A stretch of DNA of 64,000 nt from an uncultured Candidatus Saccharibacteria bacterium (lineage in GTDB: Bacteria > Patescibacteriota > Minisyncoccia > Sungbacterales > SURF-37), in contig CAYIKH010000001.1 of NCBI GenBank assembly GCA_964363965.1, positions 727-64,726 on the forward strand, in the 5' to 3' direction. Within the stretch, counting starts at the first letter, position 1. Each line of letters opens with the position of its first letter. Shown piece after piece: positions 23,994-41,681 of the stretch. The position numbers and the translations under genes were made by a program. A model generated the notes under the pieces. The model saw nothing but the letters and a program-made list of their open reading frames with translations. It had not been told where the DNA came from and did not search any database.

Positions 23994-24725
23994 ATGTTTA
24001 ACAACACCCACATTCTCGCGATCATCCCGGCCCGTGGCGGTTCGAAGGGTATTCTCCGGAAGAACCTCCGGTTAGTGGCTGGATTGCCGCTAGTTGTCCA
24101 TAGCATTCTTGCCGCCAAAGCTTCACGCTTAATTGAGCGCACTATTGTCTCTACTGACGACGAGGAGATCGCCGAGGTGGCGCGGAGCTACGGGGCCGAA
24201 GTTCCTTTTCTCCGGCCGGCGGATCTGGCTCTCGACACCACTCCGGATTTCCCGGTTTTCGAGCACTGTCTGAATTGGCTTGAGGAGAGTGAGGAGTACC
24301 GGCCCGATATCGTGGTTCATCTCCGGCCCACCGGCCCCCTTCGCACCGGGTTAGAAATCGACGAGGCGGTCGAGCTCCTGGAGCGTCATCCCGAGGCCGA
24401 CTCGGTCCGCTCGGTGCACGAGCCGGATAAATCTCCCTACAAAATGTGGCGGCTCGAAGGTTCGTACATGGTGCCTTTTTTACGTGATCCCGACTACCCC
24501 GAGCACTATAACGCCCCCCGCCAACTCCTGCCCAAGGTCTACGCTACTAATGCCAACATCGGGGTGGTCCGCTACCGGACACTCCGGGAGAAAGGTTCGG
24601 TCATAGGAGAGCGCGTTTTGCCCTATCCTGTCTCCGGGCCGCACGTGGACATTGATACTGAACTCGATCTTGAACTCGCCGAGCTTCTCTTTCGGAAGCG
24701 CGCGCGGGAGGGCCGCGGGTATTGA
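23994..24725 (+). CDS. CMP-ulosonic acid / acylneuraminate cytidylyltransferase family (CTP_transf_3)
   Basis: AIIPARGGSKGILRKN...VSTDDEEIA is the canonical NeuA/KdsB-family N-terminus. Confidence 0.7.
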   Translation: MFNNTHILAIIPARGGSKGILRKNLRLVAGLPLVVHSILAAKASRLIERTIVSTDDEEIAEVARSYGAEVPFLRPADLALDTTPDFPVFEHCLNWLEESEEYRPDIVVHLRPTGPLRTGLEIDEAVELLERHPEADSVRSVHEPDKSPYKMWRLEGSYMVPFLRDPDYPEHYNAPRQLLPKVYATNANIGVVRYRTLREKGSVIGERVLPYPVSGPHVDIDTELDLELAELLFRKRAREGRGY

Positions 24726-26131
24726 TGCAGCGGCGTTTTATGTCGACGGTCTTCCTCGCCCTAGCCAACTCCAGCCACTACTCGGGTGTCCTCCGGACGC
24801 GCTTTATTGCTGAACTCGCCCGGCACTTTCGCGTCCTCGTTCTCACTCCGCAGCTGGATGATGCGATCGTCAAACGCGATCGCTATTTTCGGAATGGAGG
24901 CGTTTCTTACCATCGTTTCCCTATTACCTATCCGCGTTTCTGGAATGTTTTGGACAGGTATCTGCGCGTGCCGCTTGTCTCCTCCTTCGACCACCTCACC
25001 TACATGCGCTATTTCTATCAGCGGTCCCACGCGCCGATCCGGAAACTCCTCATGGCCTCCCGACGGCTCTTCCCGGCATTCCTCTTCACCACCGATCGGT
25101 TGACGCTCTGGGAGGTGCGTTGGGCTCCGCAGGGTAAGGTACTAGCCGAGCTCTTTCGCACTCACACCCCGATCCTCGTCCTCACCGCCACCCCTGGATT
25201 CACGCCCTTCGAAGCCGAAATCATCGTCGCGGCTAAGCGCTTAGGGGTTCAGACCGCGGCTATCAGCATCAACTACGACAACTTGACTTCCAACGGCAAG
25301 CTCATCCGTAAAACCGACTATCTCGCCGTCTGGAACAATCTCATGCGGCGCGAAGCTAAAGTTTTGCATCGCTATTCGGATGAGCGTTTAGGCCTAGTCG
25401 GGTGTCTGCGCTTTGACCATTATTTTTATGATGAGGAGAATCCGCGTTTCCCCTCGCGCGAAGATTTTCTGAAAGCCAAGGGCCTTGATCCCGGCCGGAA
25501 AACACTGGTCTTTGCCGGCCCGACCCCAACCAATTACCCTCCGCGGCGTGAGTTTATTGCCGAGCTCTTGCGTCTTAAACGCGATGGGCACCTTGACGGC
25601 GATCCAAATATCCTGGTTCGCATTCATCCTAACGATAGTCTGGCAACGTATCGCGAGTTCCTTGGGATGCCGGGCATGCATTTTGAAGGCGCAAGTCGCA
25701 ACGTGCGTCTGGATGGCGGCAAGGGGGTGAGCATGGACGAGGAAGACCTTCTGAACCTTACCGCCACCCTTAAATACGCTGATGTTGTTTTGAATTTCGC
25801 CTCGACCGTGGCCATGGAGGCAGCTATCTTTGACCGGCCGGTCATCAATGTCGCCTTTCCCGACTACCGCCGAATCGTGTATCAATATGAATACAATAAA
25901 CACATCGTTGATACTGGCGGCGTGCGTTTAGCCCGAAGCCCGGAGGAGCTTAGTGAACTAGTAAACATGTATTTCCGCAACCCGGCTCTTGATCGCGAAG
26001 CGCGGGCCAAACTCCTTGAATTTTTTATCCCGTTTCGCGACGGCCGGAGCTGGGCGCGAACTATGGACTTCATTGTGAAAATTACCAAGCCCGGTAGTGA
26101 GAGCTTCTCTCTACTACCGGGCAAGCCGTGA
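24722..26131 (+). CDS. TagF-like CDP-polyol phosphotransferase family protein (GT-B), paralogue 1
   Basis: The C-terminus VVLNFASTVAMEAAIFDRPVINVAFPDYRR...YEYNKHIVDTGGVRLARSPEEL parallels the TagF motif region (..ITDYSS...KP.I....D.EEY...YDYE...GP...T.EEL). Confidence 0.55.
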   Translation: MMQRRFMSTVFLALANSSHYSGVLRTRFIAELARHFRVLVLTPQLDDAIVKRDRYFRNGGVSYHRFPITYPRFWNVLDRYLRVPLVSSFDHLTYMRYFYQRSHAPIRKLLMASRRLFPAFLFTTDRLTLWEVRWAPQGKVLAELFRTHTPILVLTATPGFTPFEAEIIVAAKRLGVQTAAISINYDNLTSNGKLIRKTDYLAVWNNLMRREAKVLHRYSDERLGLVGCLRFDHYFYDEENPRFPSREDFLKAKGLDPGRKTLVFAGPTPTNYPPRREFIAELLRLKRDGHLDGDPNILVRIHPNDSLATYREFLGMPGMHFEGASRNVRLDGGKGVSMDEEDLLNLTATLKYADVVLNFASTVAMEAAIFDRPVINVAFPDYRRIVYQYEYNKHIVDTGGVRLARSPEELSELVNMYFRNPALDREARAKLLEFFIPFRDGRSWARTMDFIVKITKPGSESFSLLPGKP

Positions 26132-27501
26132 AGATGAGAACCGTCCTGATCACAATCTATCAGGCCGTGGAGGCCAAAAACATTCTTCGGACTGATATCA
26201 TACGCTCTTTACTCGCCGAGCCGGATGTCCGTGCAGTATGCCTTACTAAATTTAAGGAGCGGGCTGATTATTACCGGCAGGAGATTCCGCATGAGCGGAT
26301 AATTTATGATTACTGCGACCAGGAACCTGGCGGGGCGCTGGAGCGATACTTCAGCGCTTTAAAGTTTCATCTTATCCGCACGGCCACTACTGATCTCAGG
26401 CGCCGCATGAATTTTGAGGAATCTGGAAATTATTTTTCTTATCTCATTGGTCGAGCTCTAAACTTCCTGCTGGCCCGTGGATCAATACGGAGGCTGGCGC
26501 GGTTTTTGGATTATCACCTAGTTTCTGATTCGGGGTTTGGCGATATTCTTAGGCGCTATCAGCCGGATGTTGTTTTTTTTGCTCATCTTTTTGATGATGC
26601 TGAAATTGCGCTTCTTCGCCAGGCCAAAAAGCGCGGAATCCCAACAGTCGGCTTTATTAATTCATGGGATAAATTGACGGCCCGTTCGGCTGTGCGCCTG
26701 CTTCCGGACAGGCTGGTGGTTTATAACGACATTGTAAAGCAAGAGGCCGTGGAGCACGCCGACATGCCGCCGGAGAAGATCGTGGTTTCGGGCATACCGC
26801 AGTATGATCAATATTTTACCCCAGGACCCGTTTCACGACAGGAATTTTGCGCCAAGGCCGGACTTGATCCAAAACGCGCAATTGTGTTATTGGCGCCCAT
26901 GGGTCGGGCTTTTTCCAACTCGGATTGGGAGATGATTGATATGCTTCATGAAATTATTTCTCCAAGCCAAGGTCTGCCGTTATCCCAGCTTTTGGTGCGC
27001 TTCCAGCCCAATGACTTTATTGATGAGGTTGAAATTTCGCGCCGGCCATGGCTGAGATATTCATTGCCCGGGATTCGCTTTGGAACCAGGCGCGGAGGAG
27101 ACTGGGACATGAGATTTGAAGAGCTAACTCATCTTAATGATACCCTTTTTCATTCCAGTCTCCTGGTTTCCTATGCTTCCAGCATGAGCGTGGATGCGGC
27201 CATATTCGGCAAGCCGGTGATCAACATTGATTTTGAATTGAAGCCCGGGGAGTCCATGTCAAAATCGCCAACTTTTTATTACCAGACCGATCATTATAAA
27301 AAAGCCCTTTTAACCGGCGGCATCAGGTTAGTGAAGAGTCGCGATGAGCTGATACAATGGCTCCGGCGTTACCTCCAAGATCCGAGCCTTGATCGTGAAG
27401 GACGGGAGCGGTTGGTTAAAGAGCAGTGCGGTTTAGTTGACGGTAAGGCCGGAGAGCGAATCGCCAGAGCCATTTTCGGGGTATTACAAGTATTACAATA
27501 A
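26128..27501 (+). CDS. TagF-like CDP-polyol phosphotransferase family protein, paralogue 2
   Basis: VSYASSMSVDAAIFGKPVINIDF...YYQTDHYKKALLTGGIRLVKSRDEL. It overlaps paralogue 1 by ATGA. Confidence 0.55.
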   Translation: MKMRTVLITIYQAVEAKNILRTDIIRSLLAEPDVRAVCLTKFKERADYYRQEIPHERIIYDYCDQEPGGALERYFSALKFHLIRTATTDLRRRMNFEESGNYFSYLIGRALNFLLARGSIRRLARFLDYHLVSDSGFGDILRRYQPDVVFFAHLFDDAEIALLRQAKKRGIPTVGFINSWDKLTARSAVRLLPDRLVVYNDIVKQEAVEHADMPPEKIVVSGIPQYDQYFTPGPVSRQEFCAKAGLDPKRAIVLLAPMGRAFSNSDWEMIDMLHEIISPSQGLPLSQLLVRFQPNDFIDEVEISRRPWLRYSLPGIRFGTRRGGDWDMRFEELTHLNDTLFHSSLLVSYASSMSVDAAIFGKPVINIDFELKPGESMSKSPTFYYQTDHYKKALLTGGIRLVKSRDELIQWLRRYLQDPSLDREGRERLVKEQCGLVDGKAGERIARAIFGVLQVLQ

Positions 27502-27511
27502 GAGTGATATT

Positions 27512-28327
27512 ATGTCCGATTGGGTTTCTAATTTTCCGTTGGTTCGGCATATCCGCGAGCTACGCGAAAAGACCGGTGGATCAGCCAGCATCGGCTGGAT
27601 GTACGATGAGCCGGCGTTTCTTTTATATGCTCTTGCCAAGTGGTATAAGCCCGAACTCGTGATTCAGACCGGGCATCTTTGGGGCAAGTCGGCCATGGTG
27701 GTGCTTGAGGCGCTCCATGACGGTTTTCTCATGTCTGCCGAAGGCATGATGGAGGAGGAGCAGGACGCGGATAAGAAGCTAGGCGCTTTCATCGCCGCAA
27801 ACCGCCCTTCGCCTCCGCAGCGGCCGAAAGTCATCAGCATTGATCCATTGCCAAAAGGCGTCCCGGATTCTGACGCCGGCATACGGTATCTTCGCGAGTA
27901 CGATCCGAATTTTGAGTTCTACCAGATGAAGAGCGACGAGTTTTTTCGAGCGCACGGTGGGCGGCTGGCCAAAGAATTCTCCGGCAGGCGCATCATGGGC
28001 ATTGTTGATGGCGATCACACTTGGGAAGGTTGTATGCAGGATCTCGAGTCATTGGCCAAGCTGGGAGCGCAATTCATCGTCGTTGATGACATGGCCTGGC
28101 TGCCGCACCTTAGGCGCGCCGCAGGAGAGTTTGGCCGCCGGAACGGCTACGAATTTTTCACTCTGCCTTTCTTCACCGGGATGGGCCTTCTTTGGCGGCG
28201 CGGTGAGATATCAATATCGCCGAAAGTTAGGAAGTTCCCGTATTCGCTGAAGGAATTTTTTTACGCCATCGGAGGTTTGGGACTCATCAATTTTGCGCGG
28301 CGGCTTAAGCATCTTATCGTTGGCTAG
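27512..28327 (+). CDS. Class I SAM-dependent methyltransferase, TylF/Methyltransf_24-like
   Basis: VIQTGHLWGKSAMVV and IVDGDHTWEGCMQDLE resemble macrocin-O-methyltransferase-type motifs. Confidence 0.5.
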   Translation: MSDWVSNFPLVRHIRELREKTGGSASIGWMYDEPAFLLYALAKWYKPELVIQTGHLWGKSAMVVLEALHDGFLMSAEGMMEEEQDADKKLGAFIAANRPSPPQRPKVISIDPLPKGVPDSDAGIRYLREYDPNFEFYQMKSDEFFRAHGGRLAKEFSGRRIMGIVDGDHTWEGCMQDLESLAKLGAQFIVVDDMAWLPHLRRAAGEFGRRNGYEFFTLPFFTGMGLLWRRGEISISPKVRKFPYSLKEFFYAIGGLGLINFARRLKHLIVG

Positions 28328-28328
28328 C

Positions 28329-29264
28329 ATGAAAAAGGTTCTTGTTGCTGGTGCAAGTGGTCTTATCGGCGGACATTTAGTGAAGCGGCTGCTCGCCGAT
28401 GGTCATCAGGTCCGCGCAGTTGGGCGCAGGTCGCTTCCGGAATGGCGGCAGTTGCATCCGGCGGCAGAAAACCTGCAGCTTGATTTACGCAAAAAAGAAA
28501 ACTGCTACCGCGCCGTTGAAGGGATGGATGAGGTGTATAATCTTGCCGCGGACATCGGTGGGGCGCGTTACATTGAGTCGAAAAAGGCTGAGCTTATGCT
28601 CTCCGTCCTCATCAATACCCATCTTCTCATGGCCGCTCGCGACCTCGGCGTCAAGCGCTACTTTTATTCTTCGGCCTATGCGGTTTCGGCCGCGGATCAC
28701 GAGCCGGCCGGCGTTCTTGGCGACGGCCACATCTGGGAAAAACTTTTTTCCGAGAAACTTTGCCAATATTTTCGCGAGGATTTTGGGATCCAGACCCGCG
28801 TGGCGCGGCTCCAGAATGTCTATGGTCCCTACGAAACGTACGGCGGGGACCGCGAGCGCGCGACTTCGGCCATGTGTCGCAAGGCTATCGAAGCCAGGCG
28901 TTCCGGCAATCATGAGTTTGAAATTTGGGGTGACGGAACTCAAGAGCGAAATTTTCTATATGTCGATGATGCGCTAGACGGTATTATAAAGCTTTTACCA
29001 AGCGACATCACCGAGCCGGTCGCGTTGGGGAGTTCGGAGTTCATCACCATTAACCAACTCGTGGATATTGTTGAAGGTATCGCCGGCATCAAGTTTGAAC
29101 GCCGCTATAATTTATCTGCTCCGGTAGGCACGCCTCGCCGCCCAGGCCCTCCGCCCGGCCATCCACGCCTTGATTGGCAGTCAAAAATATCGCTCCGCGA
29201 GGGCATGACGCGCCTCTATCGGTGGATGGAGCAGGATATGGAGCGAAAATTAGTAAAGGTATGA
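28329..29264 (+). CDS. NAD-dependent epimerase/dehydratase (extended SDR)
   Basis: VLVAGASGLIGGHLV; ...YSSAY... Confidence 0.7.
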   Translation: MKKVLVAGASGLIGGHLVKRLLADGHQVRAVGRRSLPEWRQLHPAAENLQLDLRKKENCYRAVEGMDEVYNLAADIGGARYIESKKAELMLSVLINTHLLMAARDLGVKRYFYSSAYAVSAADHEPAGVLGDGHIWEKLFSEKLCQYFREDFGIQTRVARLQNVYGPYETYGGDRERATSAMCRKAIEARRSGNHEFEIWGDGTQERNFLYVDDALDGIIKLLPSDITEPVALGSSEFITINQLVDIVEGIAGIKFERRYNLSAPVGTPRRPGPPPGHPRLDWQSKISLREGMTRLYRWMEQDMERKLVKV

Positions 29265-30292
29265 GGCTTGTCATCATCGGCACAACCATCAACGGTGAAA
29301 AGGGTTATTTGTCCTTGGATCGTCTTGCGGCCAAAAGCAAATTTCCCGATGTTACATTTGTCATTGCCGGAGACAAAAATTCTAAGCCTTTTGATACTTC
29401 CGGCTTCCAATGCCGGGTCGAGTATCTCGAGCCCAAAGATCAGGAGCGGTTCGAATCAAGCGTGCCTATCGGCTGGAAAACTCCGCGCCGCAGGCCAATT
29501 GCCTGGTTGCGGGCCATTGAGTTAAAGCCCGATGTTATTATCTCCGTTGATGATGACAATATCCCGCCCGATGATTACTTCGACACTTGGTATTCCGTTC
29601 TTACGAGTTCGGTCACTCAAACCGTCCTTCCGGTGCCAGGCGCCCGCGAGCCTGTTTGGCATAACTATCTCCGCTCCAGCGACGCGCCGATTGAGTTTTA
29701 TCCTCGCGGGTTTCCGATTCCTTTCCGCGGTCCTGCCAAGACCGTGATCGCGGCCGCCGCTAAGCCCATCCCGCAGCAGGAAATTGGTCTTTTCCAGGGA
29801 ATCTCCCTTGGCGATCCGGACATTGATTCTCTCACACGGATGGTTTATCCGAAGCGGATGCCGCTTAAAGCCATCAGCGAAAAGAACTACTGCCTCCGCG
29901 ATGTCTGGTCGCCGTATAATATGCAGAGCACCGCTTATCGGCCGATCCTATTTGGCCTGCCTATCCTCTGGCCGCATAATGGCCGCTTCGATGATATCTA
30001 CGCATCATTCGCGTTTCAAAAACTTCTTTTCAACAACCGGAAGTATGCATATGTGGGCGATCCCATCAATTTGCAGGATCGCGGGGTTCGTAATACTCTG
30101 AAACTCGATTTCCCGGAGGAAATCCACGGCCATCTTGGCTCGCACGAGGTCTGGTCGCGCCTCAATGAAATTGAGGAAACCGATTCGGCGCGTTTCCTCG
30201 AAAAGCTGATGGCCATTGATCACGAGCACATTCAACGTGATCTAGAGTTTTTCAAGGCGTTTCGCCAAGATATTTCAATGGTTCTGAAATAG
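29261..30292 (+). CDS. RGP/GT75-like protein (reversibly glycosylated polypeptide / UDP-arabinopyranose mutase-like)
   Basis: VIISVDDDNIPPDDYF, FYPRGFPIPFRG and GRFDDIYASFAFQ resemble the plant RGP/UAM DDDCF, FVRGYPFSLREG and GRYDDMWAGWC motifs. These are recalled from memory and were not searched. Confidence 0.4.
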   Translation: MRLVIIGTTINGEKGYLSLDRLAAKSKFPDVTFVIAGDKNSKPFDTSGFQCRVEYLEPKDQERFESSVPIGWKTPRRRPIAWLRAIELKPDVIISVDDDNIPPDDYFDTWYSVLTSSVTQTVLPVPGAREPVWHNYLRSSDAPIEFYPRGFPIPFRGPAKTVIAAAAKPIPQQEIGLFQGISLGDPDIDSLTRMVYPKRMPLKAISEKNYCLRDVWSPYNMQSTAYRPILFGLPILWPHNGRFDDIYASFAFQKLLFNNRKYAYVGDPINLQDRGVRNTLKLDFPEEIHGHLGSHEVWSRLNEIEETDSARFLEKLMAIDHEHIQRDLEFFKAFRQDISMVLK

Positions 30293-30293
30293 C

Positions 30294-31229
30294 ATGACAA
30301 AAGTTCTTGTTACCGGAGGAGCAGGATATCTCGGGTCAATTTTAACCGAGCATCTTTTGGATGCCGGATTTGACGTCATTGTCTTAGACAATCTGATGTA
30401 CGGGCAGGGGAATCTTGGTCATCTTGCTGCAAACCCACGCTTCGAATTTATTCGCGGCGATGGTCGGGACGAGCGTCTAATGAAAGAGCTTATCTCCAAA
30501 GCTGATGTCCTAATCCCGCTTGCGGCCATTGTCGGCGCTCCGGCCTGTGACCGCGATCCGTCGCTGGCCACGTCAGTGAACCTCGAGGCGATTCGGCTCG
30601 TAAATCGCCTCCGCAGCCCGAATCAGCTCGTTGTTTTTCCGAATACCAATAGCGGCTACGGAACGAAGTCCGGCGAGGTCTATTGCACCGAAGATACGTC
30701 ACTTGAGCCGATCACCCTTTATGGCCGGCTGAAAGTCGAGGCCGAAAAAGAGCTTTTGAGCTCGCTGAACACCGTCATACTTCGCCTGGCCACGGTCTTT
30801 GGCCTGTCCCCGCGAATGCGGCTTGATTTGCTGGTTAATGACTTTGTCTACAAGGCTGTCACCGACGGCTATCTCGTGATCTTTGAGAAGGATTTCAAGA
30901 GAAATTACATCCACATCCGCGACGTGGCCGACTGCTTCATCCACTCCATCAAGAACGCGCAAAAAATGGCTGGCCGGCCTTATAACGCCGGACTCGATGA
31001 CGCAAATCTTTCCAAAGAGGAACTTGCGCTCAAGGTCAAGGAATACGTTCCCAAGCTCTACATCCACTTTGCCGAGATCGGTAGCGATCCGGACAAGCGT
31101 AATTACATCGTTTCCAACGAGCGGCTGCGACAGGCCGGGTTTGAGGCCAAGCGCACGATTGACCAGGGCATTCAGGAGCTTATCAAAGGTTACAGAATGA
31201 TGGGCCGCCATCCGTTTAAGAATGTATGA
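30294..31229 (+). CDS. NAD-dependent epimerase/dehydratase (extended SDR)
   Basis: VLVTGGAGYLGSIL; YGRLK (Y-x3-K). Confidence 0.75.
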   Translation: MTKVLVTGGAGYLGSILTEHLLDAGFDVIVLDNLMYGQGNLGHLAANPRFEFIRGDGRDERLMKELISKADVLIPLAAIVGAPACDRDPSLATSVNLEAIRLVNRLRSPNQLVVFPNTNSGYGTKSGEVYCTEDTSLEPITLYGRLKVEAEKELLSSLNTVILRLATVFGLSPRMRLDLLVNDFVYKAVTDGYLVIFEKDFKRNYIHIRDVADCFIHSIKNAQKMAGRPYNAGLDDANLSKEELALKVKEYVPKLYIHFAEIGSDPDKRNYIVSNERLRQAGFEAKRTIDQGIQELIKGYRMMGRHPFKNV

Positions 31230-31948
31230 CCGAGCCGGCTCGACACGGCCTTTCCGGAATCACGGCGGCAATTCTTGCCGGCGGACTCGGAACTCGCCTG
31301 CGTTCGGTCCTTGCCGACAAGCCAAAGGTCTTGGCCGAAATCTACGGTCGACCGTTTCTTAGCTATCTTTTGGACCAGCTCAACGATGCGGGAGTGAGGC
31401 GGGTCGTTCTCCTGATTGGCTACCGCGGCGATGAGATACGAAACGTGTTCGGTGATTATTACAAGAATCTTAAGATTCGTTATTCCGAAGAGTCCTCACC
31501 CCTTGGCACTGGCGGCGCAGTGCGCTTGGCTTTGCCGATACTCGACTCTGATCCGGCGTTTATCATGAACGGCGATTCCTTCTGCGATGCGGATATCATG
31601 ACATTTTATGCTTGGCATTGCGCCAAAGACCGCTCCGGCTCTCTCCTGCTTGCTGAAGTTACTGATTCATCACGTTACGGCCGGGTGGCGCTCGATGCAG
31701 CTGGCGTCGTGCTGCGCTTTGAGGAAAAGGGCGGGCATGCCGGCCCCGGATTGATTAACGCCGGTGCTTATCTCCTCAGCCGCCGCGTGCTCGAATCCAT
31801 ACCCGAAGGGCGAGCGGTTTCGATTGAGCATGAGGTTTTTCCAAGTTGGATCGGACAAGGCCTTTACGGCTATCAAACGAGCGGCCGATTCATTGACATC
31901 GGCACGCCGGAGTCGTACGCCGAGGGCCTAAAATTCTTTGCAAGGTGA
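31226..31948 (+). CDS. hddC: Sugar-1-phosphate nucleotidyltransferase (HddC-like, D-glycero-D-manno-heptose-1-P guanylyltransferase candidate)
   Basis: AAILAGGLGTRLRSV..DKPK is the nucleotidyltransferase motif. The ~240-aa size fits, and it sits just before hddA/gmhB/gmhA. Confidence 0.6.
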   Translation: MTEPARHGLSGITAAILAGGLGTRLRSVLADKPKVLAEIYGRPFLSYLLDQLNDAGVRRVVLLIGYRGDEIRNVFGDYYKNLKIRYSEESSPLGTGGAVRLALPILDSDPAFIMNGDSFCDADIMTFYAWHCAKDRSGSLLLAEVTDSSRYGRVALDAAGVVLRFEEKGGHAGPGLINAGAYLLSRRVLESIPEGRAVSIEHEVFPSWIGQGLYGYQTSGRFIDIGTPESYAEGLKFFAR

Positions 31949-32046
31949 GAGGTCTTAGCTGGTGAGCGATTAGTCGGCCGATGACCGAAACCTATTCTTG
32001 TGAGGTATTTCTATCTGGATATGCATCGGCAACATTCGAACTCAAC

Positions 32047-33051
32047 ATGGTAATTTCCAAAACCCCGTGGCGAATATCGTTTTTCGGCGGCGGCACGGAT
32101 TTGCCGGCCTGGTACCGCGAGCACGGCGGAGCGGTTTTGAGCACCACCATTGATAAATACGGCTACATCACCTGTCGCTTCTTGCCGCCTTTTTTTGAGC
32201 ATAAAAACCTTGTTGTTTGGTCGCATATCGAGAAGACAAAAAGCGTGGATGAGATTCTTCATCCTTCGGTGCGCGAAACCCTGAAGTTCCTTAATTTTCA
32301 CGATGGCTTGGGCATACACTTTGACGGCGATCTTCCGGCGCGCACCGGTCTAGGCTCAAGCTCGTCTTTTACCGTTGGCCTTTTGAATGCTCTTTATGCC
32401 TTGCGTGGGCAGGAGACAACTAAAAAACAGCTTGCGCTTGATGCCATTCACATCGAGCAGAATCTCATTCGGGAAAACGTCGGCTCGCAGGATCAGGTGG
32501 CCGCCGCTTTCGGAGGGCTAAACCGCATCACCTTTGATAAAAGCGGGGAGATTGATGTTACTCCGATTCCAATCAAGCCCGAGCGGCTCGAAGAACTTCA
32601 AAATCATCTTATGCTTGTTTTCACCGGACTCTTGCGCAGTGCTTCGAGCGTCGAGGGCGAAAAAATCCAAAATATGTCCCAACGGGTTCGCGAATTTACT
32701 GCGATGCACGAGATGGTGGGTGAGGCGTTTGGTATCCTTACTGACGAGCGCGACCGACTTCATGATTTCGGCAAACTGCTTCACGAGATGTGGCAGCTTA
32801 AACGGACTTTGGCTTCATCTGTCGCCAATGACCACATTGACGGAATATACGAAGAGGCGCGGCAAACCGGCGCCATCGGTGGCAAGCTTTTGGGTGCTGG
32901 CGGAGGCGGATTCATGCTTTTATTCGCACCGCCTGAAGTTCAACCCAAAATCCGCGAGCGATTAAAGGGTTTGATGCAGGTTCCATTTCGTTTTGAATCC
33001 CAAGGCAGCCATATCATCCATCAAACCCCGCACTCGCCTTATCTGGTATAA
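32047..33051 (+). CDS. hddA: GHMP kinase, D-glycero-D-manno-heptose 7-phosphate kinase-like
   Basis: KTPWRISFFGGGTDLP, and the GHMP motif PARTGLGSSSSFTVG. Confidence 0.7.
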   Translation: MVISKTPWRISFFGGGTDLPAWYREHGGAVLSTTIDKYGYITCRFLPPFFEHKNLVVWSHIEKTKSVDEILHPSVRETLKFLNFHDGLGIHFDGDLPARTGLGSSSSFTVGLLNALYALRGQETTKKQLALDAIHIEQNLIRENVGSQDQVAAAFGGLNRITFDKSGEIDVTPIPIKPERLEELQNHLMLVFTGLLRSASSVEGEKIQNMSQRVREFTAMHEMVGEAFGILTDERDRLHDFGKLLHEMWQLKRTLASSVANDHIDGIYEEARQTGAIGGKLLGAGGGGFMLLFAPPEVQPKIRERLKGLMQVPFRFESQGSHIIHQTPHSPYLV

Positions 33052-33064
33052 GTTTAAGTAGACC

Positions 33065-33634
33065 ATGTCAAAACGCCGTTTTGTGATTTTGGACCGCGAC
33101 GGCACGATTATTGAAGGCGTGCAGCCTTATGTTTTGCATCCGGATCAGGTGGCACTTTTGCCGGGCGCGGCTCGGACGCTCCGAGAACTAAAATCTCAAG
33201 GTTTTGGGCTTATAGTAGTTACCAATCAGTCTGCAGTTGGCCGTGGCCTGATCGATTCCAGCCGCCTCGAGGAGATTCATCAGCGTTTCATCGGGCTCCT
33301 GGCTAGGGAAGGAGTTGAACTCGACGGTATTTATGTATGTACTCATCATCCCGATGACAAGTGTGTCTGTCGTAAGCCGCTACCCGGTCTCGTTGATCAG
33401 GCGGTGAGTGAGCACGGTTTTGACCTGAAGCAATCATTTCTGATCGGCGATGATGCCAAAGATATCGAACTTGGGCATGCAATCGGCGCCACGACATTTC
33501 TCGTTCGTACTGGACACGGCGAGTCTTTTTTAGCTGGGGGTCTTGGGATACAACCGCATCACGTCGTAGCCGACTTACCTTCGGCCGCAAGCGTGATTCA
33601 TACCTTAACCGTTGACCGGTCAAATGCGGCGTGA
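33065..33634 (+). CDS. gmhB: D,D-heptose 1,7-bisphosphate phosphatase (HAD family)
   Basis: FVILDRDGTI (DxDGT), VVTNQSAVGRG, and the CTHHPDDKCVCRKP Zn-binding loop typical of GmhB. Confidence 0.75.
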   Translation: MSKRRFVILDRDGTIIEGVQPYVLHPDQVALLPGAARTLRELKSQGFGLIVVTNQSAVGRGLIDSSRLEEIHQRFIGLLAREGVELDGIYVCTHHPDDKCVCRKPLPGLVDQAVSEHGFDLKQSFLIGDDAKDIELGHAIGATTFLVRTGHGESFLAGGLGIQPHHVVADLPSAASVIHTLTVDRSNAA

Positions 33635-34356
33635 AATCAATGGAAAAGAATAACGATTTTCTTCACAATATAGTGCGCTCGCATCTTGTCGAAAGCGCGC
33701 TCGTAAAACGGCGTCTCCTCGGAGCGACTGGCGGTTTTGATTATTCTAAGGTTCAAGTTGTTAGTGCCGGTCTTTCCATGCCGCAATACTCGAGTGATGT
33801 CGTGTCCGGGAGCGATGCGGTTGATGCGGTAGTGCAGGCAGTCTCGACCATTGCTGCCTCTTTTCGGAACGGCGGCAAGCTGATGCTCTGCGGAAATGGC
33901 GGGAGCGCTGCGGATTGCCAGCACATGGCTGCGGAGTTTACAAACATTCTTGAGCGCTCGTTCGACCGCGGGCCACTCCCCGCCATATCGCTCACTACCG
34001 ATACGTCGTTTCTCACTTCGTTCATAAACGATTCGCGGCTGTTCGCCCAGATTTTCTCGCGTCAGGTGGAGGCGCTCGGCCGGAAGGGGGACGTTCTCAT
34101 CGGCATCTCAACGAGCGGCGGCTCCGAGAACGTAATTCGCGCTGTCAGGAAGGCCCAAGAGATGGGCATGGCAACGATTGCCTTCACCGGAGAGGGCGGG
34201 CCGCTTGCTGAAGTCGCGGACATCGCGATTCGGGTGCCGAGCGCGCGGACAAGCCATATCCAGGAGGCGCATCTGGCTATTGAACATGCCATCTGTGATG
34301 CCGTGGAGCATCTTATGTTTCCGGAGAAAGGTTCGGCATTAAGGGAGGCAGTGTAA
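33631..34356 (+). CDS. gmhA: Phosphoheptose (sedoheptulose-7-phosphate) isomerase, SIS domain
   Basis: LCGNGGSAADCQHMAAEF and GISTSGGSENV. Confidence 0.75.
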   Translation: MKSMEKNNDFLHNIVRSHLVESALVKRRLLGATGGFDYSKVQVVSAGLSMPQYSSDVVSGSDAVDAVVQAVSTIAASFRNGGKLMLCGNGGSAADCQHMAAEFTNILERSFDRGPLPAISLTTDTSFLTSFINDSRLFAQIFSRQVEALGRKGDVLIGISTSGGSENVIRAVRKAQEMGMATIAFTGEGGPLAEVADIAIRVPSARTSHIQEAHLAIEHAICDAVEHLMFPEKGSALREAV

Positions 34357-34373
34357 ATTCAACCTGATTTTTC

Positions 34374-35231
34374 ATGAACATTACCGTTGTTGGCGGAAAG
34401 GGTTTTATCGGCAAGCCGCTTGTGGCCGAACTTAGCAAGCGTCATCGCGTCGAGACTTGGGATCTTCCGGAAGTTGATCTCCGCGATCCGGCCGCAATTG
34501 CCAAACGACTTGAAGAGAGGAGGCCAGATATGGTGGTCAATTTAGCTGCAGTGCTGGGAACGATGTATTCTAAAAACATCCAGGAGATTTTTGCGACAAA
34601 TGTTGTTGGGAATATAAATCTTGTAGAGGCCTGTCTCGCGCATGGGATAAAAAGATTCGTATTTGCAAGTTCCTTGACTGTGCACGGTCCGAACGAAATA
34701 GGAAAACATCATACGTCGCACTCACCCTTTAATCCTATCCAGGCCTATGCCGCCAGCAAAGCCGCTGCGGAATACAGTCTAATGCAATATTCGAAACATA
34801 ACGGTGTGACGACCGTGGTATTGCGGCCTGCAAGTGTACTGGGGGAGGGCACGCCAATGAATCATGCGCCTAGTGATTTTGTAAAAACACTACTTCGCGG
34901 CGATTCGATTGAGCTTTTTGGCGGAGGGGAACATGAAAGAGAGTGGCTATGGATTGATGATGTTGTATCTGGGTTTTGCAAGGCGGTAGATTTTTGCGCC
35001 AAAGCTCCAGCTGGCTACCACCCGTTTTTTATTTCCGCAAACCGCATCTCAATGAAGGATCTTGCCGAAAGATGCGTTAGCTTTATTGGTGGTTCAGTAA
35101 AAGTCGCTGCTGGTACTGCTCAAGCTTTTTCGTTGACATGCGATGCATCAGATACCCAAAAAATACTTGGTTGGAGAGTCGAGTATACTATAGACGATAT
35201 CATTCAAAACCTGATTAAAATTTTTAAATAG
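34374..35231 (+). CDS. NAD-dependent epimerase/dehydratase (extended SDR)
   Basis: ITVVGGKGFIGKPL; YAASKAAAE (Y-x3-K). Confidence 0.7.
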   Translation: MNITVVGGKGFIGKPLVAELSKRHRVETWDLPEVDLRDPAAIAKRLEERRPDMVVNLAAVLGTMYSKNIQEIFATNVVGNINLVEACLAHGIKRFVFASSLTVHGPNEIGKHHTSHSPFNPIQAYAASKAAAEYSLMQYSKHNGVTTVVLRPASVLGEGTPMNHAPSDFVKTLLRGDSIELFGGGEHEREWLWIDDVVSGFCKAVDFCAKAPAGYHPFFISANRISMKDLAERCVSFIGGSVKVAAGTAQAFSLTCDASDTQKILGWRVEYTIDDIIQNLIKIFK

Positions 35232-35247
35232 ATCGTGAGACCCTCTT

Positions 35248-35763
35248 ATGGTAAAAGTTTCTAAAACAAAACTCCCCGGCCTGCTCCTGATTCAGCTTGA
35301 CGCCTTTCGCGACCATCGCGGGGTGTATGTCGGGACCTATGACGAGGCGCGCTACCGCAAGCTCGGCATCCGGGTGAAGTTCGTGGAGGACGATTATTCG
35401 CGCTCGCGCCGGCGGGTGCTCCGCGGCATCCACGCCGATTCCAAATCGTGGAAACTCATTTCCTGCCCGCTTGGTAGAATTCTCGTTGTCATCGTCAATT
35501 GCAACCGCCGATCGCGGCGTTTCGGCCGATGGCAGGCCTTTGAACTTTCGGAGAAGAACTGCCGCCAGCTCCTCGTTCCCCCCAAGCACGGCGTAGTGCA
35601 TCTTGTCCTCTCTCGCCAGGCCATGTTCAGTTACAAGCAGTCCGAGTATTACGATCCCAAGCGCCAAGCCACGTATCGCTGGGACGATCCCGCCTTCAAG
35701 ATCCGCTGGCCGGTGCGAAACCCCATTCTCTCGAAGCGTGATCGGCTCGGTCACTACGTGTAG
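35248..35763 (+). CDS. NDP-4-keto-6-deoxy sugar 3,5-epimerase, RfbC-like cupin
   Basis: The dTDP-4-dehydrorhamnose 3,5-epimerase fold is recognisable from RGIHAD...KLISCPLGRILVV...YDP. In this context it may act on GDP-heptose intermediates. Confidence 0.7.
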   Translation: MVKVSKTKLPGLLLIQLDAFRDHRGVYVGTYDEARYRKLGIRVKFVEDDYSRSRRRVLRGIHADSKSWKLISCPLGRILVVIVNCNRRSRRFGRWQAFELSEKNCRQLLVPPKHGVVHLVLSRQAMFSYKQSEYYDPKRQATYRWDDPAFKIRWPVRNPILSKRDRLGHYV

Positions 35764-35784
35764 CTTGCGCGAGAGTGTATTTCC

Positions 35785-36909
35785 ATGAAAATCAAAAGAC
35801 TCCTCGTGGTCCCGTGCGACACGCTGGTACAAGGAAAGGAGGTTGCCAGGCGAACCTCCTTTTTTGGCGAGGCGGCCTCGTTCTTGGCTATCAAGCTTGG
35901 CCGGAGCGGCTTTAGCTATGACGGCGAGATACAGTTTTACGGCGATTTTCCGGCTCTGCTCGGCAAAGAACACGTGTTTGTCTACGGACGATTCCATCCC
36001 CATCTTTATGTGAAGCACGTTCCAAAAAACTGCCCTTACCCCTCCTGCCACGGCCTGCCGAAAGGGACGGCGATAGGATCAAAGGATCTTAGTGCGGTCA
36101 TGAGCCAGGTGGATGCGGTGTTTGTTTCCTTGCGCGGCGGCGAGAGGGCCCAGGAGGTGCTCGCCGAGGCTGGGCGGCGCGGCATTCCCAGAGCGCTCTT
36201 TGATTTTGAGGATTATCCGGAAATCTACGGCCGGGCGCTTGCCGCAAAAGAACTCACGGCTGGCTATGCGCACGGCAAGGACTTTGAGCTTTATTTCAAG
36301 AAAGAATTGCCGCTCGGCTTTCGCACGGATACCATCTTGCCGCTTGCGCCAAGTCCGGTGCGGCCCGAATCTTATCGCTTTCCGAACGCTAACAAGCGTC
36401 ATGCTATTTTTTATAGCGGCCGTTCGCGTCCGGGCTGTCAGGCGGATCGCGAGGAGGCTGTGGCGCTTCTCGGGAAGTTTCCCGGCGGCGAATTTATTGA
36501 CCACGATCGGCGGCGCCGGAGCTTTTTGACCACGCATGAATACTGGCGGCATCTTGCCGAAAGCCGCATGGCTCTTTCGCCGTCCGGCAAGTCCTGGGAT
36601 TCTTACCGGCACTGCGAGGTCGGGCTTGCTCCGCAAACTCTCCTCATTGCGCCCAAACCCTTCATCGAAACTGCTGGTCCGCAGCTTATAGATGGCCGAA
36701 ATGCAATTCTCTACGACACCGAGTTTCGCGACGGGAAATATCATCTTAAAGACGCCGGCGCGCTTGCCGATGCGGTCCGTTATTATCTCAGCCACGACGA
36801 CGAGAGGAAAAAAATTGCCGATGCGTGGCAGCGCGATGTCCTTTCGGGACATACGGTATTAGGCCGCTCGTGCTATATACTCGAGAGTATGGAGCGAGCC
36901 TTCTCATGA
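35785..36909 (+). CDS. Hypothetical protein, possible GT-B-like glycosyltransferase
   Basis: 374 aa. The C-terminal region (RMALSPSGKSWDSYRHCEVGLAPQTLLIAP) is reminiscent of GT-B donor-binding domains. No firm assignment. Confidence 0.3.
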   Translation: MKIKRLLVVPCDTLVQGKEVARRTSFFGEAASFLAIKLGRSGFSYDGEIQFYGDFPALLGKEHVFVYGRFHPHLYVKHVPKNCPYPSCHGLPKGTAIGSKDLSAVMSQVDAVFVSLRGGERAQEVLAEAGRRGIPRALFDFEDYPEIYGRALAAKELTAGYAHGKDFELYFKKELPLGFRTDTILPLAPSPVRPESYRFPNANKRHAIFYSGRSRPGCQADREEAVALLGKFPGGEFIDHDRRRRSFLTTHEYWRHLAESRMALSPSGKSWDSYRHCEVGLAPQTLLIAPKPFIETAGPQLIDGRNAILYDTEFRDGKYHLKDAGALADAVRYYLSHDDERKKIADAWQRDVLSGHTVLGRSCYILESMERAFS

Positions 36910-38243
36910 AAACTGTATTCATCACCTGCATCCGCGGCATTATATCGCGGAACATCCTTTCGACCGCGGCTTTTGAGTTACTGGCCTCGAGGAACGATTT
37001 GCGTCTGGTTATCATTGTGCCGGAAAGCCGGACTGTGGCCATGAAAAAAGAGTTCGGCGGAGAAAATGTGTTTATCGAGGGCGTCCCCAACCCGCCGCCG
37101 AAAGGCCTTGGCCGGTTTCTTTGGGTCCTGGCTACCAATCTCCTAGCCACCCGCACCCGCGAAGTCCAGCGTCGAGCCAAGTTCGAGTATGATAAAAACC
37201 TCTTTGATTACCTGGCCTCGCGGCTGGTGGGCTTCATCGGCCGCTTCCGCGCGCTGCGACGGCTTTTCCGCCTTCTTTACGGCCTGTTTGATTCCGGCTC
37301 GGAGTTTGACAACTTGTTCAAGCGCTATCAGCCTTCGCTCCTTTTTGGCACCGATGTTTACGAGCTTGCCGATGTCCGGATTATGAGGGCCGCAAGGCGA
37401 TTGGGCGTAACAACCATAGGCATGGTGAGATCGTGGGATAACCCGACATCCAAAACCATTTTGAATTTTATTCCCGATCATGTTGTGGTTAATGCCGAGC
37501 GCATCCGCGCCGAGGCCATTGAATACGGCGATGTTCCGGCCAATCGCATATCCATCTCTGGTGTGCCGCATTATGATTGCTATCTAGACACATCTTTAAG
37601 AACGCCGCGCGATGAATTCTGCCGCCGAGTAGGTCTTGATCCAGCTAAGCCCTTTATGCTTTTTACACCGCCGGCGGACACTTATTTACAGCATGATCCG
37701 GTTGCTCCAGTTGTATTGAAGGCGCTTGAAACCAGCCGCATACAGGTATTGGTGAGAATGCCGCTTGTTGGCAAGACGGAACTCGCCGGTATGATTCCGC
37801 CGCCCAATGCTGTTTTTGATATGCCGTCAAACTCTCCGGATTTCGTTGATGTGCATCTTGACCGCGCGGCTGATCGGCACCTTGCCGATTCAATCTATCA
37901 CAGCGCCCTGGTCATCACCTGGGCTTCAACCATGGTTATTGACGCTGCGGCTTTTGACAAACCCATAATCCTTGTCGGTTTTGATGCTTCGCCCCGACCC
38001 TACGGCCGGAGCATCCAGCAATACTACGATTATGACCACCAGCGGGCCATAATTGAGAGTCGGGGAGTTAGGTTTGCGAGAACCCCGGAGGAGTTAAGTC
38101 GTATGGCTAAACTTTATCTGGACGATTCCACTCTTGATAAGATCGGACGCGAAAAAATCCGCCAGGATTACTGCGGAGATCTTGATGGTCATGACGGAGA
38201 GCGGCTGGGAAAGTTCTTATTGGAGAGGCTTGACGCTTTGTAG
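36906..38243 (+). CDS. TagF-like CDP-polyol phosphotransferase family protein, paralogue 3
   Basis: LVITWASTMVIDAAAFDKPIILVGFDASPRPY...YYDYDHQRAIIESRGVRFARTPEEL. ATGA overlap with the upstream gene. Confidence 0.55.
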   Translation: MKTVFITCIRGIISRNILSTAAFELLASRNDLRLVIIVPESRTVAMKKEFGGENVFIEGVPNPPPKGLGRFLWVLATNLLATRTREVQRRAKFEYDKNLFDYLASRLVGFIGRFRALRRLFRLLYGLFDSGSEFDNLFKRYQPSLLFGTDVYELADVRIMRAARRLGVTTIGMVRSWDNPTSKTILNFIPDHVVVNAERIRAEAIEYGDVPANRISISGVPHYDCYLDTSLRTPRDEFCRRVGLDPAKPFMLFTPPADTYLQHDPVAPVVLKALETSRIQVLVRMPLVGKTELAGMIPPPNAVFDMPSNSPDFVDVHLDRAADRHLADSIYHSALVITWASTMVIDAAAFDKPIILVGFDASPRPYGRSIQQYYDYDHQRAIIESRGVRFARTPEELSRMAKLYLDDSTLDKIGREKIRQDYCGDLDGHDGERLGKFLLERLDAL

Positions 38244-39566
38244 ATCAGTTGAAATGTCGTAGTTGGCCTCGCTTTGCAGTATTTGATCGAGACTGGCGGC
38301 GAGTGCGGCAATGGAGTCTATGTGGTAGCGTTCGGGGATGGGAATGGCGAATTCTCGTTTGCCTCGCAGTTTCGCGGTTGCGGTTTGGCGTTTTTCGCGC
38401 CAGAGCGCGATCGGCCCGACAAAAGCTCTCCAGAGGTGATGCAGCTTCATGCGCCTTGAAATAAGCACCAGCGGCACTCCCAGCGCCCGGATTACGGCCT
38501 CGAGCTTAAGCCGTTTTTTTTCTGCCGCCGGCAAGGTTTCGAGGAAGCCGAATAAATTCAACCAATTGGCTAGAGCCGTAAAAAAATCAGTGTCGAGGTA
38601 GAAAAGTTCCCTAAGATATAATTCGGCGAATCGAGCGTAATTTATCTTGAAGCCGCCGACGAGATCCGGAAGCAATTGTTGAACCCGGAGGTAATTTTCC
38701 AGAATTCCGTTGACTCTTGTGTAGGCGGAAACAGGACTGAATTCAGGCTTGAACGGTCGGGCTTGAAAGCGCCGGTGCGCCGCGGTTGACCAGGCTTGAC
38801 TCATTGATACGCCGAGCCGGCCGACAATAACCACCGGCCGATCGATGAAAAAGCACGATTTGGCAAAAGCAAACATAATTGGCTGAAGGGAATGGATGTT
38901 GGGCATATCGGCGAGTAGGAGAAATCCCAGTCGCATGATGGCTCGTTCTATAACCTGACGGGATATCACCGTGGCCGAAAAATGGAAGCGCGGCAAAGTC
39001 TGTCCCGGTCCTCGCTTCCCAAAGTCATAGAGGCTCCTGATGGTTTCCCTAAGGTCAATTTTCCGGCTTTGGCCGGTAAAGGGTATAATGCCAAGACCGT
39101 TTCTTAGGAAACGGCGCGGATGGTTTTGGTCGTAATAGTAGAAGTGGCTCGCGGTTATGATTTCCGATCCGTCCTGCCGTATTGCCTCGCGAAAAAGTTC
39201 AAGGGCCTGCGGCAGAAGGTAATTGTCGTCATCAAACCACATTACGTATTCGCCCCGCGCTTCTTTTGCGGCGTGGTCCCAGGTTATAAGTCCGGGGCCA
39301 GGCGGGGGATGGAGATAGCGGATGCGCGGATCTCCAGAGTCGGTGGCCGCGCGTTCGGATTCAGGAGACGTGCTCAAATCCGAGATGACAATTTCAAAAT
39401 CCTGAAAGCTTTGCTCCAGAACCGATTTGACGGCCATGCGGATGAGTTCAGGCCGGCCGGTGGTCGGAATAAGTATTGAGAAAAACGGCCTTTTCGTTTT
39501 ACTTTCATTGCTCATAGCAATAAATTCACCATACATTAATACCAAAATGCGCGCCATTATTCTCAC
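38217..39566 (-). CDS. GT2 family glycosyltransferase with extended C-terminal domain
   Basis: FSILIPTTGRPELIRMAVKSVLEQSFQDFEIVISD...WFDDDN. The start is uncertain among GTG 39566, ATG 39557 and ATG 39515. Confidence 0.65.
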   Translation of the reverse strand: MRIMARILVLMYGEFIAMSNESKTKRPFFSILIPTTGRPELIRMAVKSVLEQSFQDFEIVISDLSTSPESERAATDSGDPRIRYLHPPPGPGLITWDHAAKEARGEYVMWFDDDNYLLPQALELFREAIRQDGSEIITASHFYYYDQNHPRRFLRNGLGIIPFTGQSRKIDLRETIRSLYDFGKRGPGQTLPRFHFSATVISRQVIERAIMRLGFLLLADMPNIHSLQPIMFAFAKSCFFIDRPVVIVGRLGVSMSQAWSTAAHRRFQARPFKPEFSPVSAYTRVNGILENYLRVQQLLPDLVGGFKINYARFAELYLRELFYLDTDFFTALANWLNLFGFLETLPAAEKKRLKLEAVIRALGVPLVLISRRMKLHHLWRAFVGPIALWREKRQTATAKLRGKREFAIPIPERYHIDSIAALAASLDQILQSEANYDISTDLQSVKPLQ

Positions 39567-40533: not shown

Positions 40534-40541
40534 GGAATCGC

Positions 40542-41678: not shown

Positions 41679-41681
41679 ATT

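Follow-up and report, generated by a model that had tools for sequence, protein, structure and literature searches.

Three paralogous TagF-related GT-B proteins as putative CMP-nonulosonic acid transferases in a Patescibacteria glycan locus

Three paralogs and a decayed fourth copy

In an uncultured Candidatus Saccharibacteria bacterium, a glycan locus of about 45 kb encodes three paralogous proteins with similarity to TagF and TarL, which are referred to here as A, B, and C. The locus lies within a 64,000-nucleotide stretch of contig CAYIKH010000001.1 that was analysed as a whole (the window). The open reading frames (ORFs) of A (24722-26131) and B (26128-27501) are located on the plus strand and have probable ATG start codons at 24725 and 26134, which agree with the 468-aa and 455-aa database proteins P0121 and P0001, respectively; B starts 2 nt past the stop of A. 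The ORF of C (36825-38243, plus strand) contains a methionine codon at 36906 that lines up with the N-terminus of B. In pairwise blastp comparisons, A shares 28.3% identity with B over 322 aa (E 4e-30) and 28.3% with C over 329 aa (E 2e-27), and B and C share 30.1% over 462 aa, which is the full length (E 5e-69). These similarities are far beyond chance and identify A, B, and C as paralogs, as had been proposed in an earlier sequence-only reading of this DNA. The C-terminal motif AST....AA.F.KP.I ... Y..YDY.H ... G....A...EEL, which that reading had compared with TagF/TarL, is found in all three proteins.

The closest relatives of A and B are encoded by Candidatus Sungbacteria and other Parcubacteria. 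The search with B returned 381 homologs, the best 120 of which have 52-67% identity, and A has orthologs with 57-62% identity in Parcubacteria. The paralogs are thus about 30% identical to one another, compared with 50-67% to their own orthologs across the phylum. Because each paralog has such orthologs of its own, a recent duplication and the diversifying selection suggested by the sequence-only reading are rejected. The comparison instead indicates that the A/B/C set is old and separately conserved, and 18 of the 50 large related loci described below contain all three gene types.

The fourth, decayed copy that had also been proposed does exist as a B-type remnant, but it lies about 14 kb upstream of the interval 24722-38243 covered by that reading. 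By tblastn, two segments in separate reading frames, 10809-10919 and 10933-11250, proved 56-57% identical to residues 304-450 of B (E 1.5e-37). The frame ends at about 11271, and three-frame translation bears out this layout. The remnant is flanked by genes for polytopic-looking proteins of 653 aa (8788-10749, plus strand) and 635 aa (11303-13210, plus strand) without a Pfam family. The former has a weak match to DUF2298, and the type encoded at 11303 is seen in 11 related loci. These proteins could be GT-C-like glycosyltransferases or oligosaccharyltransferases.

Table 1. Location and assignment of the paralogs, the remnant, and neighbouring genes in the window
Feature	Position	Strand	Assignment and evidence
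Decayed fourth copy, B-type	10809-11271	+	3' remnant of about 150 codons, one frameshift, no N-terminal domain
NeuB-family ulosonic acid synthase	21758-22747	+	Short form without SAF; PF03102 E 1.4e-43; NeuB_NnaB 135 and PseI 104.8 bits, both below cut-off
Conserved Patescibacteria protein	22747-23904	+	No family; glycosyltransferase family 1 (GT1)-like GT-B fold; between NeuB-like gene and CTP_transf_3
CMP-ulosonic acid synthetase (CTP_transf_3, PseF/NeuA type)	23994-24725	+	PF02348 E 9.5e-19; TIGR03584 PseF 144.8 bits, best NCBIfam match
Paralog A (468 aa)	24725-26131	+	TagF-superfamily GT-B protein, probable CMP-nonulosonic acid transferase; keeps RIHP His (H301)
Paralog B (455 aa)	26134-27501	+	Same family as A; Gln in place of HP-motif His (RFQP)
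Methyltransferase-like ORF (weak), downstream of B	27437-28327	+	Methyltransf_24 19.5 bits, below cut-off
Nucleoside diphosphate (NDP)-furanose module	28293-31229	+	Short-chain dehydrogenase/reductase (SDR) epimerase, GT75-type mutase homolog, second SDR epimerase/reductase
SDR epimerase and SDR epimerase/reductase of the module	28293-29264 and 30294-31229	+	Pfam Epimerase E 5.5e-40 and 1.7e-27
GT75-type NDP-pyranose mutase homolog	29174-30292	+	No Pfam family; MtdL (PDB 7xpr) E 2.3e-16
Complete GDP-heptose pathway	31226-34356	+	HddC-like nucleotidyltransferase 151 bits, HddA-like GHMP kinase 137.6 bits, GmhB phosphatase 158 bits, GmhA isomerase 176-188 bits
SDR epimerase/reductase and RmlC-type 3,5-epimerase	34374-35763	+	Pfam Epimerase E 1.7e-43; dTDP_sugar_isom E 4.5e-46
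Glyco_trans_1_2 glycosyltransferase-like protein	35785-36909	+	PF13524 E 8.1e-9; homologs in related loci L001 and L005
Paralog C (445 aa)	36906-38243	+	Most divergent copy; Pro in place of HP-motif His (RMPL)
GT2 glycosyltransferase	38217-39566	-	PF00535 E 1.7e-18
Second nonulosonic acid set	39427-43636	+	PGDH-like 2-hydroxyacid dehydrogenase, NeuB with SAF, hydrolysing 2-epimerase NeuC, second CTP_transf_3

Family placement, fold, and cleft residues

PF04464 (Glyphos_transf) is the sole significant Pfam transferase family for the paralogs, and the match to it is marginal. A search with this model, which had been put forward as a check on the TagF relationship, gave scores above the cut-off of 22.1 bits for A (27.5 bits) and B (37.2 bits), but not for C (16.3 bits). 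The match covers residues 170-452 of A and is confined to residues 334-450 of B, which are 117 aa in part of the C-terminal nucleotide-binding half. This is as expected if only the binding of cytidine monophosphate (CMP) is shared with TagF-type enzymes. Canonical TarL, TarF, and other annotated TagF-like proteins taken from plasmids served as controls. TarL (333.7 bits), TarF (427.8 bits), and a TagB-like protein (283.7 bits) matched the full model with scores about ten times those of A, B, and C.

The best NCBIfam match of A, B, and C is NF046086 (BFO_1060 family glycosyltransferase) with 64.5 (E 9e-18), 61.3, and 24.5 bits, respectively, and the TarL and TarF models give at most 21 bits. 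Four canonical TagF-like proteins score 93-1044 bits with the TarL/TarF/TarB models, and only one of the four touches NF046086 (28 bits). NF046086 is also the top match of six distant relatives of A (33-57 bits), one of which has additional marginal matches to TarB/TarL (16-18 bits). The tie to the BFO_1060 family is provided by this NCBIfam profile, with no BFO_1060 or Tanf_01245 sequence among the word-indexed search results or the best 150 representatives.

Profile comparison with hhalign against canonical TagF-like proteins reached probabilities of 98.4-98.7% (E about 1e-15) and, together with the PF04464 matches of A and B, upholds the earlier description of the paralogs as GT-B enzymes related to TagF/TarL. 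A search of the sequences of solved structures with single proteins and the family profile yielded only marginal TarL matches (E 0.05 and 0.0055) and none for A, so that sequence alone is insufficient to place the family among solved structures. The AlphaFold2 (AF2) model of B (predicted local distance difference test score, pLDDT, 91.9) adopts a GT-B fold. Its closest solved structures include TagF/TarL, which are closer to it than the sialyltransferase SiaD. An assignment to another GT-B clade, for example KpsC/KpsS or GT1/GT4, had been named as an outcome that would speak against the sequence-only reading; no such match was found in Pfam or NCBIfam, the Glyco_transf_4 score of B (27.9 bits) being just below the cut-off of 28.5 bits. 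No match of A, B, or C to Pfam sialyltransferase families was obtained at E up to 0.01, and no membrane span is predicted in the three proteins. The N-domain holds a basic four-helix insertion of about 60 residues (11 Lys and Arg compared with 5 Asp and Glu), a possible contact site for the membrane or a lipid-linked acceptor. Taken together, the profile scores place A, B, and C in the TagF superfamily, but in neither the canonical nor the BFO_1060 family.

The clade to which they belong is very large. Counted as clusters at 50% identity, it has 14,191 representatives at E up to 0.001, a number that probably includes canonical TagF-like proteins, and 3,322 at E up to 1e-30. Six members (P0315-P0319 and P0324) have 897-1090 aa and match the profile in two stretches; they are apparently fused tandem copies of the transferase.

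In all seven canonical sequences, the first catalytic His is found within Q-x-W-H and the second within (K/R)-x-H(P). In TarL, these residues are H300 and H433, whose counterparts in TagF are H444 and H584. The TarL structure PDB 8va1 is that of an H300N mutant. The second His (K-M-H433-P in TarL) is aligned unambiguously: it is kept in A (R-I-H301-P), and the corresponding sequences are R-F-Q-P in B and R-M-P-L in C. B orthologs have Gln (33/38) or Pro (5/38) at this position, which is Gln293 in B. Of 133 family representatives, 90 have His, 24 have Pro, and 7 have Gln in this column; about 32% have lost the His.

For the first His (Q-x-W-H-(G/A)), no alignment places a His common to all three paralogs at the TarL H300 position, and no N-domain His conserved across the family was found. 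The alignments disagree on this column. MAFFT aligns it with strand 4, where only B has a His, and both global and local hhalign put it inside a helix, apparently drawn by a chance 'TVGF' identity; these placements were discarded as unreliable. His153, which follows strand 4, is restricted to B orthologs (31/38), A having Thr and C having Asp at that position, and the position is variable among the representatives (Thr in 40, Asp in 25, Asn in 21, His in 19). The AF2 strand order and a topologically clean alignment with NeuC suggest that the first-His site corresponds to the loop after strand 5, which carries S-W-D-x-x-T. In the NeuC alignment, S-W-D coincides with the epimerase segment 'T-I-D-E-S', where 2-epimerases have a catalytic acid. 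Residues that are invariant or nearly so among the 133 representatives are Asp181 (133), Gly222 (133), Asp227 (132), Arg291 (130), and Ser351 (129). D181, D227, R291, and S351 line the cleft, and their conservation of 97-100% indicates strong purifying selection.

Gene context in the window and in related genomes

The cytidylyltransferase gene directly upstream of A had been taken as support for teichoic acid-type chemistry. The gene is indeed present and its stop codon overlaps the ATG of A (TGATG), but the encoded CTP_transf_3 protein is of the PseF type and not of the TagD/TarI type. It is translationally coupled to A and is the probable maker of the donor. A second CTP_transf_3 protein, encoded at 42920, has 44% identity to it. 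Altogether, the nonulosonate genes of the window comprise two NeuB, one NeuC, and two CTP_transf_3 genes, both of the latter best matching PseF. In the second set, NeuC_NnaA reaches 355.7 bits (equivalog cut-off 235.9), NeuB_NnaB 262.7 bits, and PseF 186.7 bits. TagD, TarI, TarJ, or IspD-type genes were found neither by Pfam among the scanned ORFs of at least 150 aa in the window nor by a TagD motif scan. With no genes for CDP-glycerol or CDP-ribitol, the BFO_1060 family as best match, and a first His that is not conserved, the phosphodiester chemistry of the sequence-only reading is not sustained, and the evidence favours CMP-ulosonic acid, which was among the donors it had listed. The ATG of C overlaps the stop of the Glyco_trans_1_2 gene (ATGA), to which C is translationally coupled.

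A scan of one genome per GTDB species gave 75 loci, nearly all from Patescibacteria, each with a B ortholog of 33-59% identity. Fifty of these loci span at least 15 kb. Of the 50, 36 encode NeuB, 37 encode CTP_transf_3, 40 either of them, 33 both, and 32 NeuC; a 2-hydroxyacid dehydrogenase is present in 25 and heptose-pathway genes are present in only 10. These large loci contain one (9 loci), two (14), three (26), or four (1) copies of the family. Of 74 loci, 49 have a nonulosonate gene within 3 kb of a family copy, and 58 have one within 10 kb. Gene orders recur, such as NeuB-X-CTP3-A-B (L073) and C-A-B-NeuC-CTP3-2HADH-EamA-NeuB-Wzy (L049), where CTP3 is CTP_transf_3 and 2HADH the 2-hydroxyacid dehydrogenase. 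In another lineage, the gene for P0192, a relative with 27% identity, directly adjoins CTP_transf_3, NeuB, PglD, and DegT genes. When the 5,670 ORFs of the 75 loci were probed with TagD/TarI, three weak matches were obtained in all, one TagD-like and two marginal. By contrast, four of six loci with canonical TagF-like genes carry TarI/TarJ, an IspD-like gene, or TagD right next to them.

A D-2-hydroxyacid dehydrogenase similar to phosphoglycerate dehydrogenase (PGDH) is encoded at 39427-40533 (plus strand). In related loci such as L001, L005, L034, and L049, this type of enzyme likewise accompanies family genes together with NeuB, NeuC, and CTP_transf_3, an association seen in 25 of the 50 large loci. 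By analogy with Pse5Am7Gra of Tannerella, this enzyme might supply a glycerate-type N-acyl group. In L001 (618-3763) and L005 (296-4119), family genes are located near genes for ATP-sulfurylase, adenosine phosphosulfate (APS) kinase, and CysQ-like proteins, possibly for sulfated glycans. In L006 (14591-15595), a phosphoenolpyruvate (PEP) mutase gene with genes for AMP-ligases and carrier proteins lies near family genes, possibly for phosphonates. Sulfotransferase genes are also found near family genes in related loci, and L088 is among the loci with such anionic-decoration neighbours. The surface glycans of bacteria with these loci appear to carry diverse anionic decorations.

Between B and C, the window encodes an NDP-furanose module that adjoins the complete GDP-heptose pathway. 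MtdL is a GT75 NDP-pyranose mutase that makes GDP-L-galactofuranose and GDP-L-fucofuranose (PMC9937993). Because the MtdL-like mutase is flanked by two SDR epimerases and adjoins the full heptose pathway, the glycan may contain an unusual furanose, possibly a heptofuranose. Upstream, the segment 4579-8647 (plus strand) encodes a glucose-1-phosphate cytidylyltransferase-like protein (292.8 bits, cut-off 300.25), a CDP-glucose 4,6-dehydratase-like protein, a C-methyltransferase, and a GFO/MocA oxidoreductase, and the segment 16263-19484 (plus strand) encodes a second C-methyltransferase, an RmlB equivalog, and an RmlD-like reductase. The glycan is likely to contain branched-chain (C-methylated) sugars. 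A Bac_transf initiating transferase and GT2 and GT4 enzymes are also encoded in the window. At 45923-48253 (plus strand), a Wzy_C domain (O-antigen ligase/O-oligosaccharyltransferase-like) is fused to a long tetratricopeptide repeat (TPR) region; 17 related loci, L034 and L049 among them, end with a gene for a protein of this type. The ORFs 15192-16253 (353 aa) and 20651-21700 (349 aa), both on the plus strand, show the same weak methyltransferase-like Pfam pattern (residues 180-285 and 180-275) and, from this pattern and their size, may be another paralogous pair in the first ulosonic acid cluster. The first 2,000 nucleotides of the window have a G+C content of 37.8%, compared with 51-59% elsewhere. 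A gene for a phosphonate-binding ATP-binding cassette (ABC) substrate-binding protein (734-1642) and one for a CDP-alcohol phosphatidyltransferase (1857-2669) are located on the minus strand. A PHROGs scan of the family-less ORFs of the window gave no match.

Proposed reaction, competing explanations, and significance

The paralogy, the fold, the remote homology to TagF, the loss of the His pair, and the gene context with its conservation are established here. From gene context and remote homology, A, B, and C most likely use CMP-nonulosonic acids as donors, an assignment that is made with moderate confidence because NF046086 is the best match, donor genes are adjacent, the context is conserved, and the TagF His pair is lost. 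A, B, and C would then be cytoplasmic GT-B transferases of a large clade that is conserved in Patescibacteria and whose divergence from the TagB/TagF/TarL (Glyphos_transf) lineage is ancient. The clade would have kept the C-terminal half, which holds the CMP moiety of the donor in TagF-type enzymes, including AS(T/S), the acidic residue of (D/E)AA, KPVI, and the arginine within 'VR-x-(H)-P', and would have rebuilt the catalytic N-terminal half: the His of the TagF 'W-H-G' motif is gone, and the invariant Asp of the S-W-D-x-x-T loop is predicted to sit in the cleft, with Asp181 as the putative catalytic base. The enzymes would be glycosyltransferases that move a nonulosonic (sialic-acid-like) acid from its CMP-activated form and release CMP, rather than enzymes that transfer polyol phosphate from a CDP-polyol, and the acceptor would be a growing surface glycan that is presumably undecaprenyl-linked. 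Donors could be provided by two sets of enzymes. The first consists of the NeuB-like protein, the GT1-like protein, and CTP_transf_3, encoded directly upstream of A-B in translational coupling, and the second of NeuC, NeuB, and CTP_transf_3, encoded just downstream of C. As the three paralogs are old and separately conserved, they would be expected to catalyze three different transfers, differing in donor, acceptor, or linkage.

The proposed reaction would be the one assigned genetically to BFO_1060/Tanf_01245 of Tannerella forsythia, BFO_1060 being the strain 92A2 ortholog of Tanf_01245. Deletion of BFO_1060/Tanf_01245 or of TFUB4_00887 leads to the loss of the terminal pseudaminic acid (Pse) or legionaminic acid (Leg) derivative from the Tannerella O-glycan, and a TagB-like domain in these transferases was noted by the authors (PMC5420450, PMC5378307). 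The Tannerella proteins are of similar size (442-445 aa compared with 445-468 aa for A, B, and C), are GT-B proteins with TagB-like similarity and no predicted membrane span, and are encoded at the edge of a CMP-nonulosonate biosynthesis locus. They differ in that one gene is present in Tannerella, a member of the Bacteroidota, whereas three paralogs per locus are conserved in Patescibacteria.

In comparison with TagB/TagF/TarF/TarL (PF04464; PDB 3l7i, 8va1), to which the homology is remote but real, A, B, and C share the C-terminal motifs (D/A)(Y)SS/AST, an acidic residue, KP(V/M)I, an Arg/Lys before the HP His, and a G-x-P-x-x-D linker, and CMP would leave in both chemistries. In contrast, the basic four-helix insertion and the invariant S-W-D loop distinguish the paralogs from TagF-type enzymes, in which the conserved W-H His is present and the partner cytidylyltransferase is TagD/TarI instead of CTP_transf_3. 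GT-B sialyltransferases (CAZy GT38, GT52, and GT80; SiaD, PDB 5wc6) catalyze the proposed type of reaction, an inverting transfer from CMP-nonulosonate, and A resembles them in keeping the HP motif at the start of the C-domain.

Several observations weigh against a nonulosonate donor. A, B, and C stay far below the NF046086 cut-off of 200 bits and thus form a clade separate from the BFO_1060 family. DXD, D/E-D/E-G, and HP motifs are reported for the Tannerella proteins, but the bacterial sialyltransferase motif [DE][DE]G is absent from A, B, and C, and HP is found only in A. The Tannerella evidence itself is genetic only (PMC5420450). A further TagB-like protein, SpsB of the monoderm Bacillus subtilis, is encoded beside the sps Leg pathway and was proposed as a Leg transferase, but deletion of spsB left the Leg of the spore unreduced (PMC7439481). 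SpsB resembles the paralogs in its gene setting and, being dispensable for Leg transfer, is a cautionary precedent rather than support. Neither NeuB nor CTP_transf_3 is found within 10 kb in 10 of the 50 large loci, and in small Patescibacteria genomes the concentration of most glycan genes in one locus may inflate co-occurrence.

The main alternative is that some or all paralogs, especially B and C without the HP His, are ordinary glycosyltransferases for another sugar nucleotide made by the locus and that only A, or none, handles a nonulosonic acid. This is possible but rather unlikely. Candidate donors would be GDP-furanose, GDP-heptose, CDP-6-deoxyhexose, and dTDP-sugars, and with the glucose-1-phosphate cytidylyltransferase-like and CDP-glucose 4,6-dehydratase-like proteins, the RmlB equivalog, and the GDP-heptose pathway, the window does make CDP-glucose-derived, dTDP-, and GDP-sugars. 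In L007/L091, a B ortholog recurs with GT4/GT2/Wzx genes followed by the epimerase/GT75 mutase/epimerase module, with no nonulosonate genes within 10 kb, and in L006 the B ortholog directly follows an NTP_transferase gene and is accompanied by heptose-like and PEP mutase genes. The distant relatives P0181 and P0188 are not encoded beside nonulosonate genes either. Heptose genes are located within 5 kb of B in 13/86 cases, of C in 2/46, and of A in 0/26; nonulosonate genes, however, are the commonest partners of every subfamily at this distance (A 15/26, B 59/86, C 26/46). Moreover, the profiles link the paralogs to CMP-dependent TagF and BFO_1060 and not to GT1, GT4, or GT9, and the GT2, GT4, and Glyco_trans_1_2 enzymes of the locus are already available for its NDP-sugars.

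It is improbable that the paralogs are genuine TagF-like phosphotransferases that take glycerol phosphate, ribitol phosphate, or some other polyol phosphate from a CDP-polyol and place it on the glycan, with a teichoic acid-like phosphodiester polymer as the product. The PF04464 scores of A and B, the hhalign probabilities, the second His of A, and the name 'CDP-glycerol glycerophosphotransferase family protein' given to homologs by the annotation pipeline PGAP all agree with this function. It is disfavoured because a donor pathway is lacking in the window and nearly so in the 75 related loci, a first His is not conserved in the family, and the neighbouring cytidylyltransferase is a CMP-ulosonate enzyme; the low PF04464 scores and the loss of the second His in B, C, and a third of the representatives point in the same direction. 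It is very improbable that the proteins are NeuC/WecB-like nucleotide-sugar epimerases/hydrolases or inactive scaffold subunits: hhalign does align them with NeuC over the full length (92% probability), and S-W-D is aligned with the epimerase segment 'T-I-D-E-S', but TagF-like proteins are preferred by eight orders of magnitude (E 5.5e-15 compared with 5.7e-7), Pfam Epimerase_2 (PF02350) is not matched at E below 0.01, a bona fide NeuC is already encoded in the window, and the purifying selection on the cleft residues argues against an inactive scaffold. Since canonical TarL also weakly matches Epimerase_2, the resemblance to NeuC belongs to the whole TagF lineage.

The genes themselves are not new, being publicly annotated as members of the CDP-glycerol glycerophosphotransferase family. 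What is new is a distinct and very large clade with its own invariant Asp motif, a conserved arrangement of three paralogs, and a nonulosonate rather than a polyol context. No paper in the literature searched ties Patescibacteria to nonulosonic acids or characterizes the clade. Transferases for bacterial sialic-acid-like sugars such as pseudaminic and legionaminic acid are poorly known; besides the flagellin enzyme Maf and a few capsule enzymes, the TagB-like proteins of Tannerella are almost the sole candidates, and they are known from genetics alone (PMC5420450). The current name of the homologs implies teichoic acid chemistry in Patescibacteria, which the gene context does not support.

If the CMP-nonulosonate assignment is wrong, A, B, and C would simply be divergent teichoic-type transferases within a large glycan locus. 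If it is true, a systematic mis-annotation would be corrected, one GT-B scaffold would have changed its reaction type by means of new catalytic residues with the CMP pocket kept, and many bacteria of the Candidate Phyla Radiation would be predicted to wear coats of sialic-acid-like sugars. As a more tentative extension, the Patescibacteria-centred clade as a whole might have exchanged the TagF His pair for the invariant Asp and thereby switched chemistry, and the A/B/C trio might build an oligo- or poly-nonulosonate chain. Such a clade-wide switch would provide a long-missing general family of Pse, Leg, and neuraminic acid (Neu) transferases for lipid-linked glycans, and a poly-nonulosonate chain would represent an anionic, teichoic acid-like polymer of sialic-acid-like sugars in ultrasmall episymbiotic bacteria.

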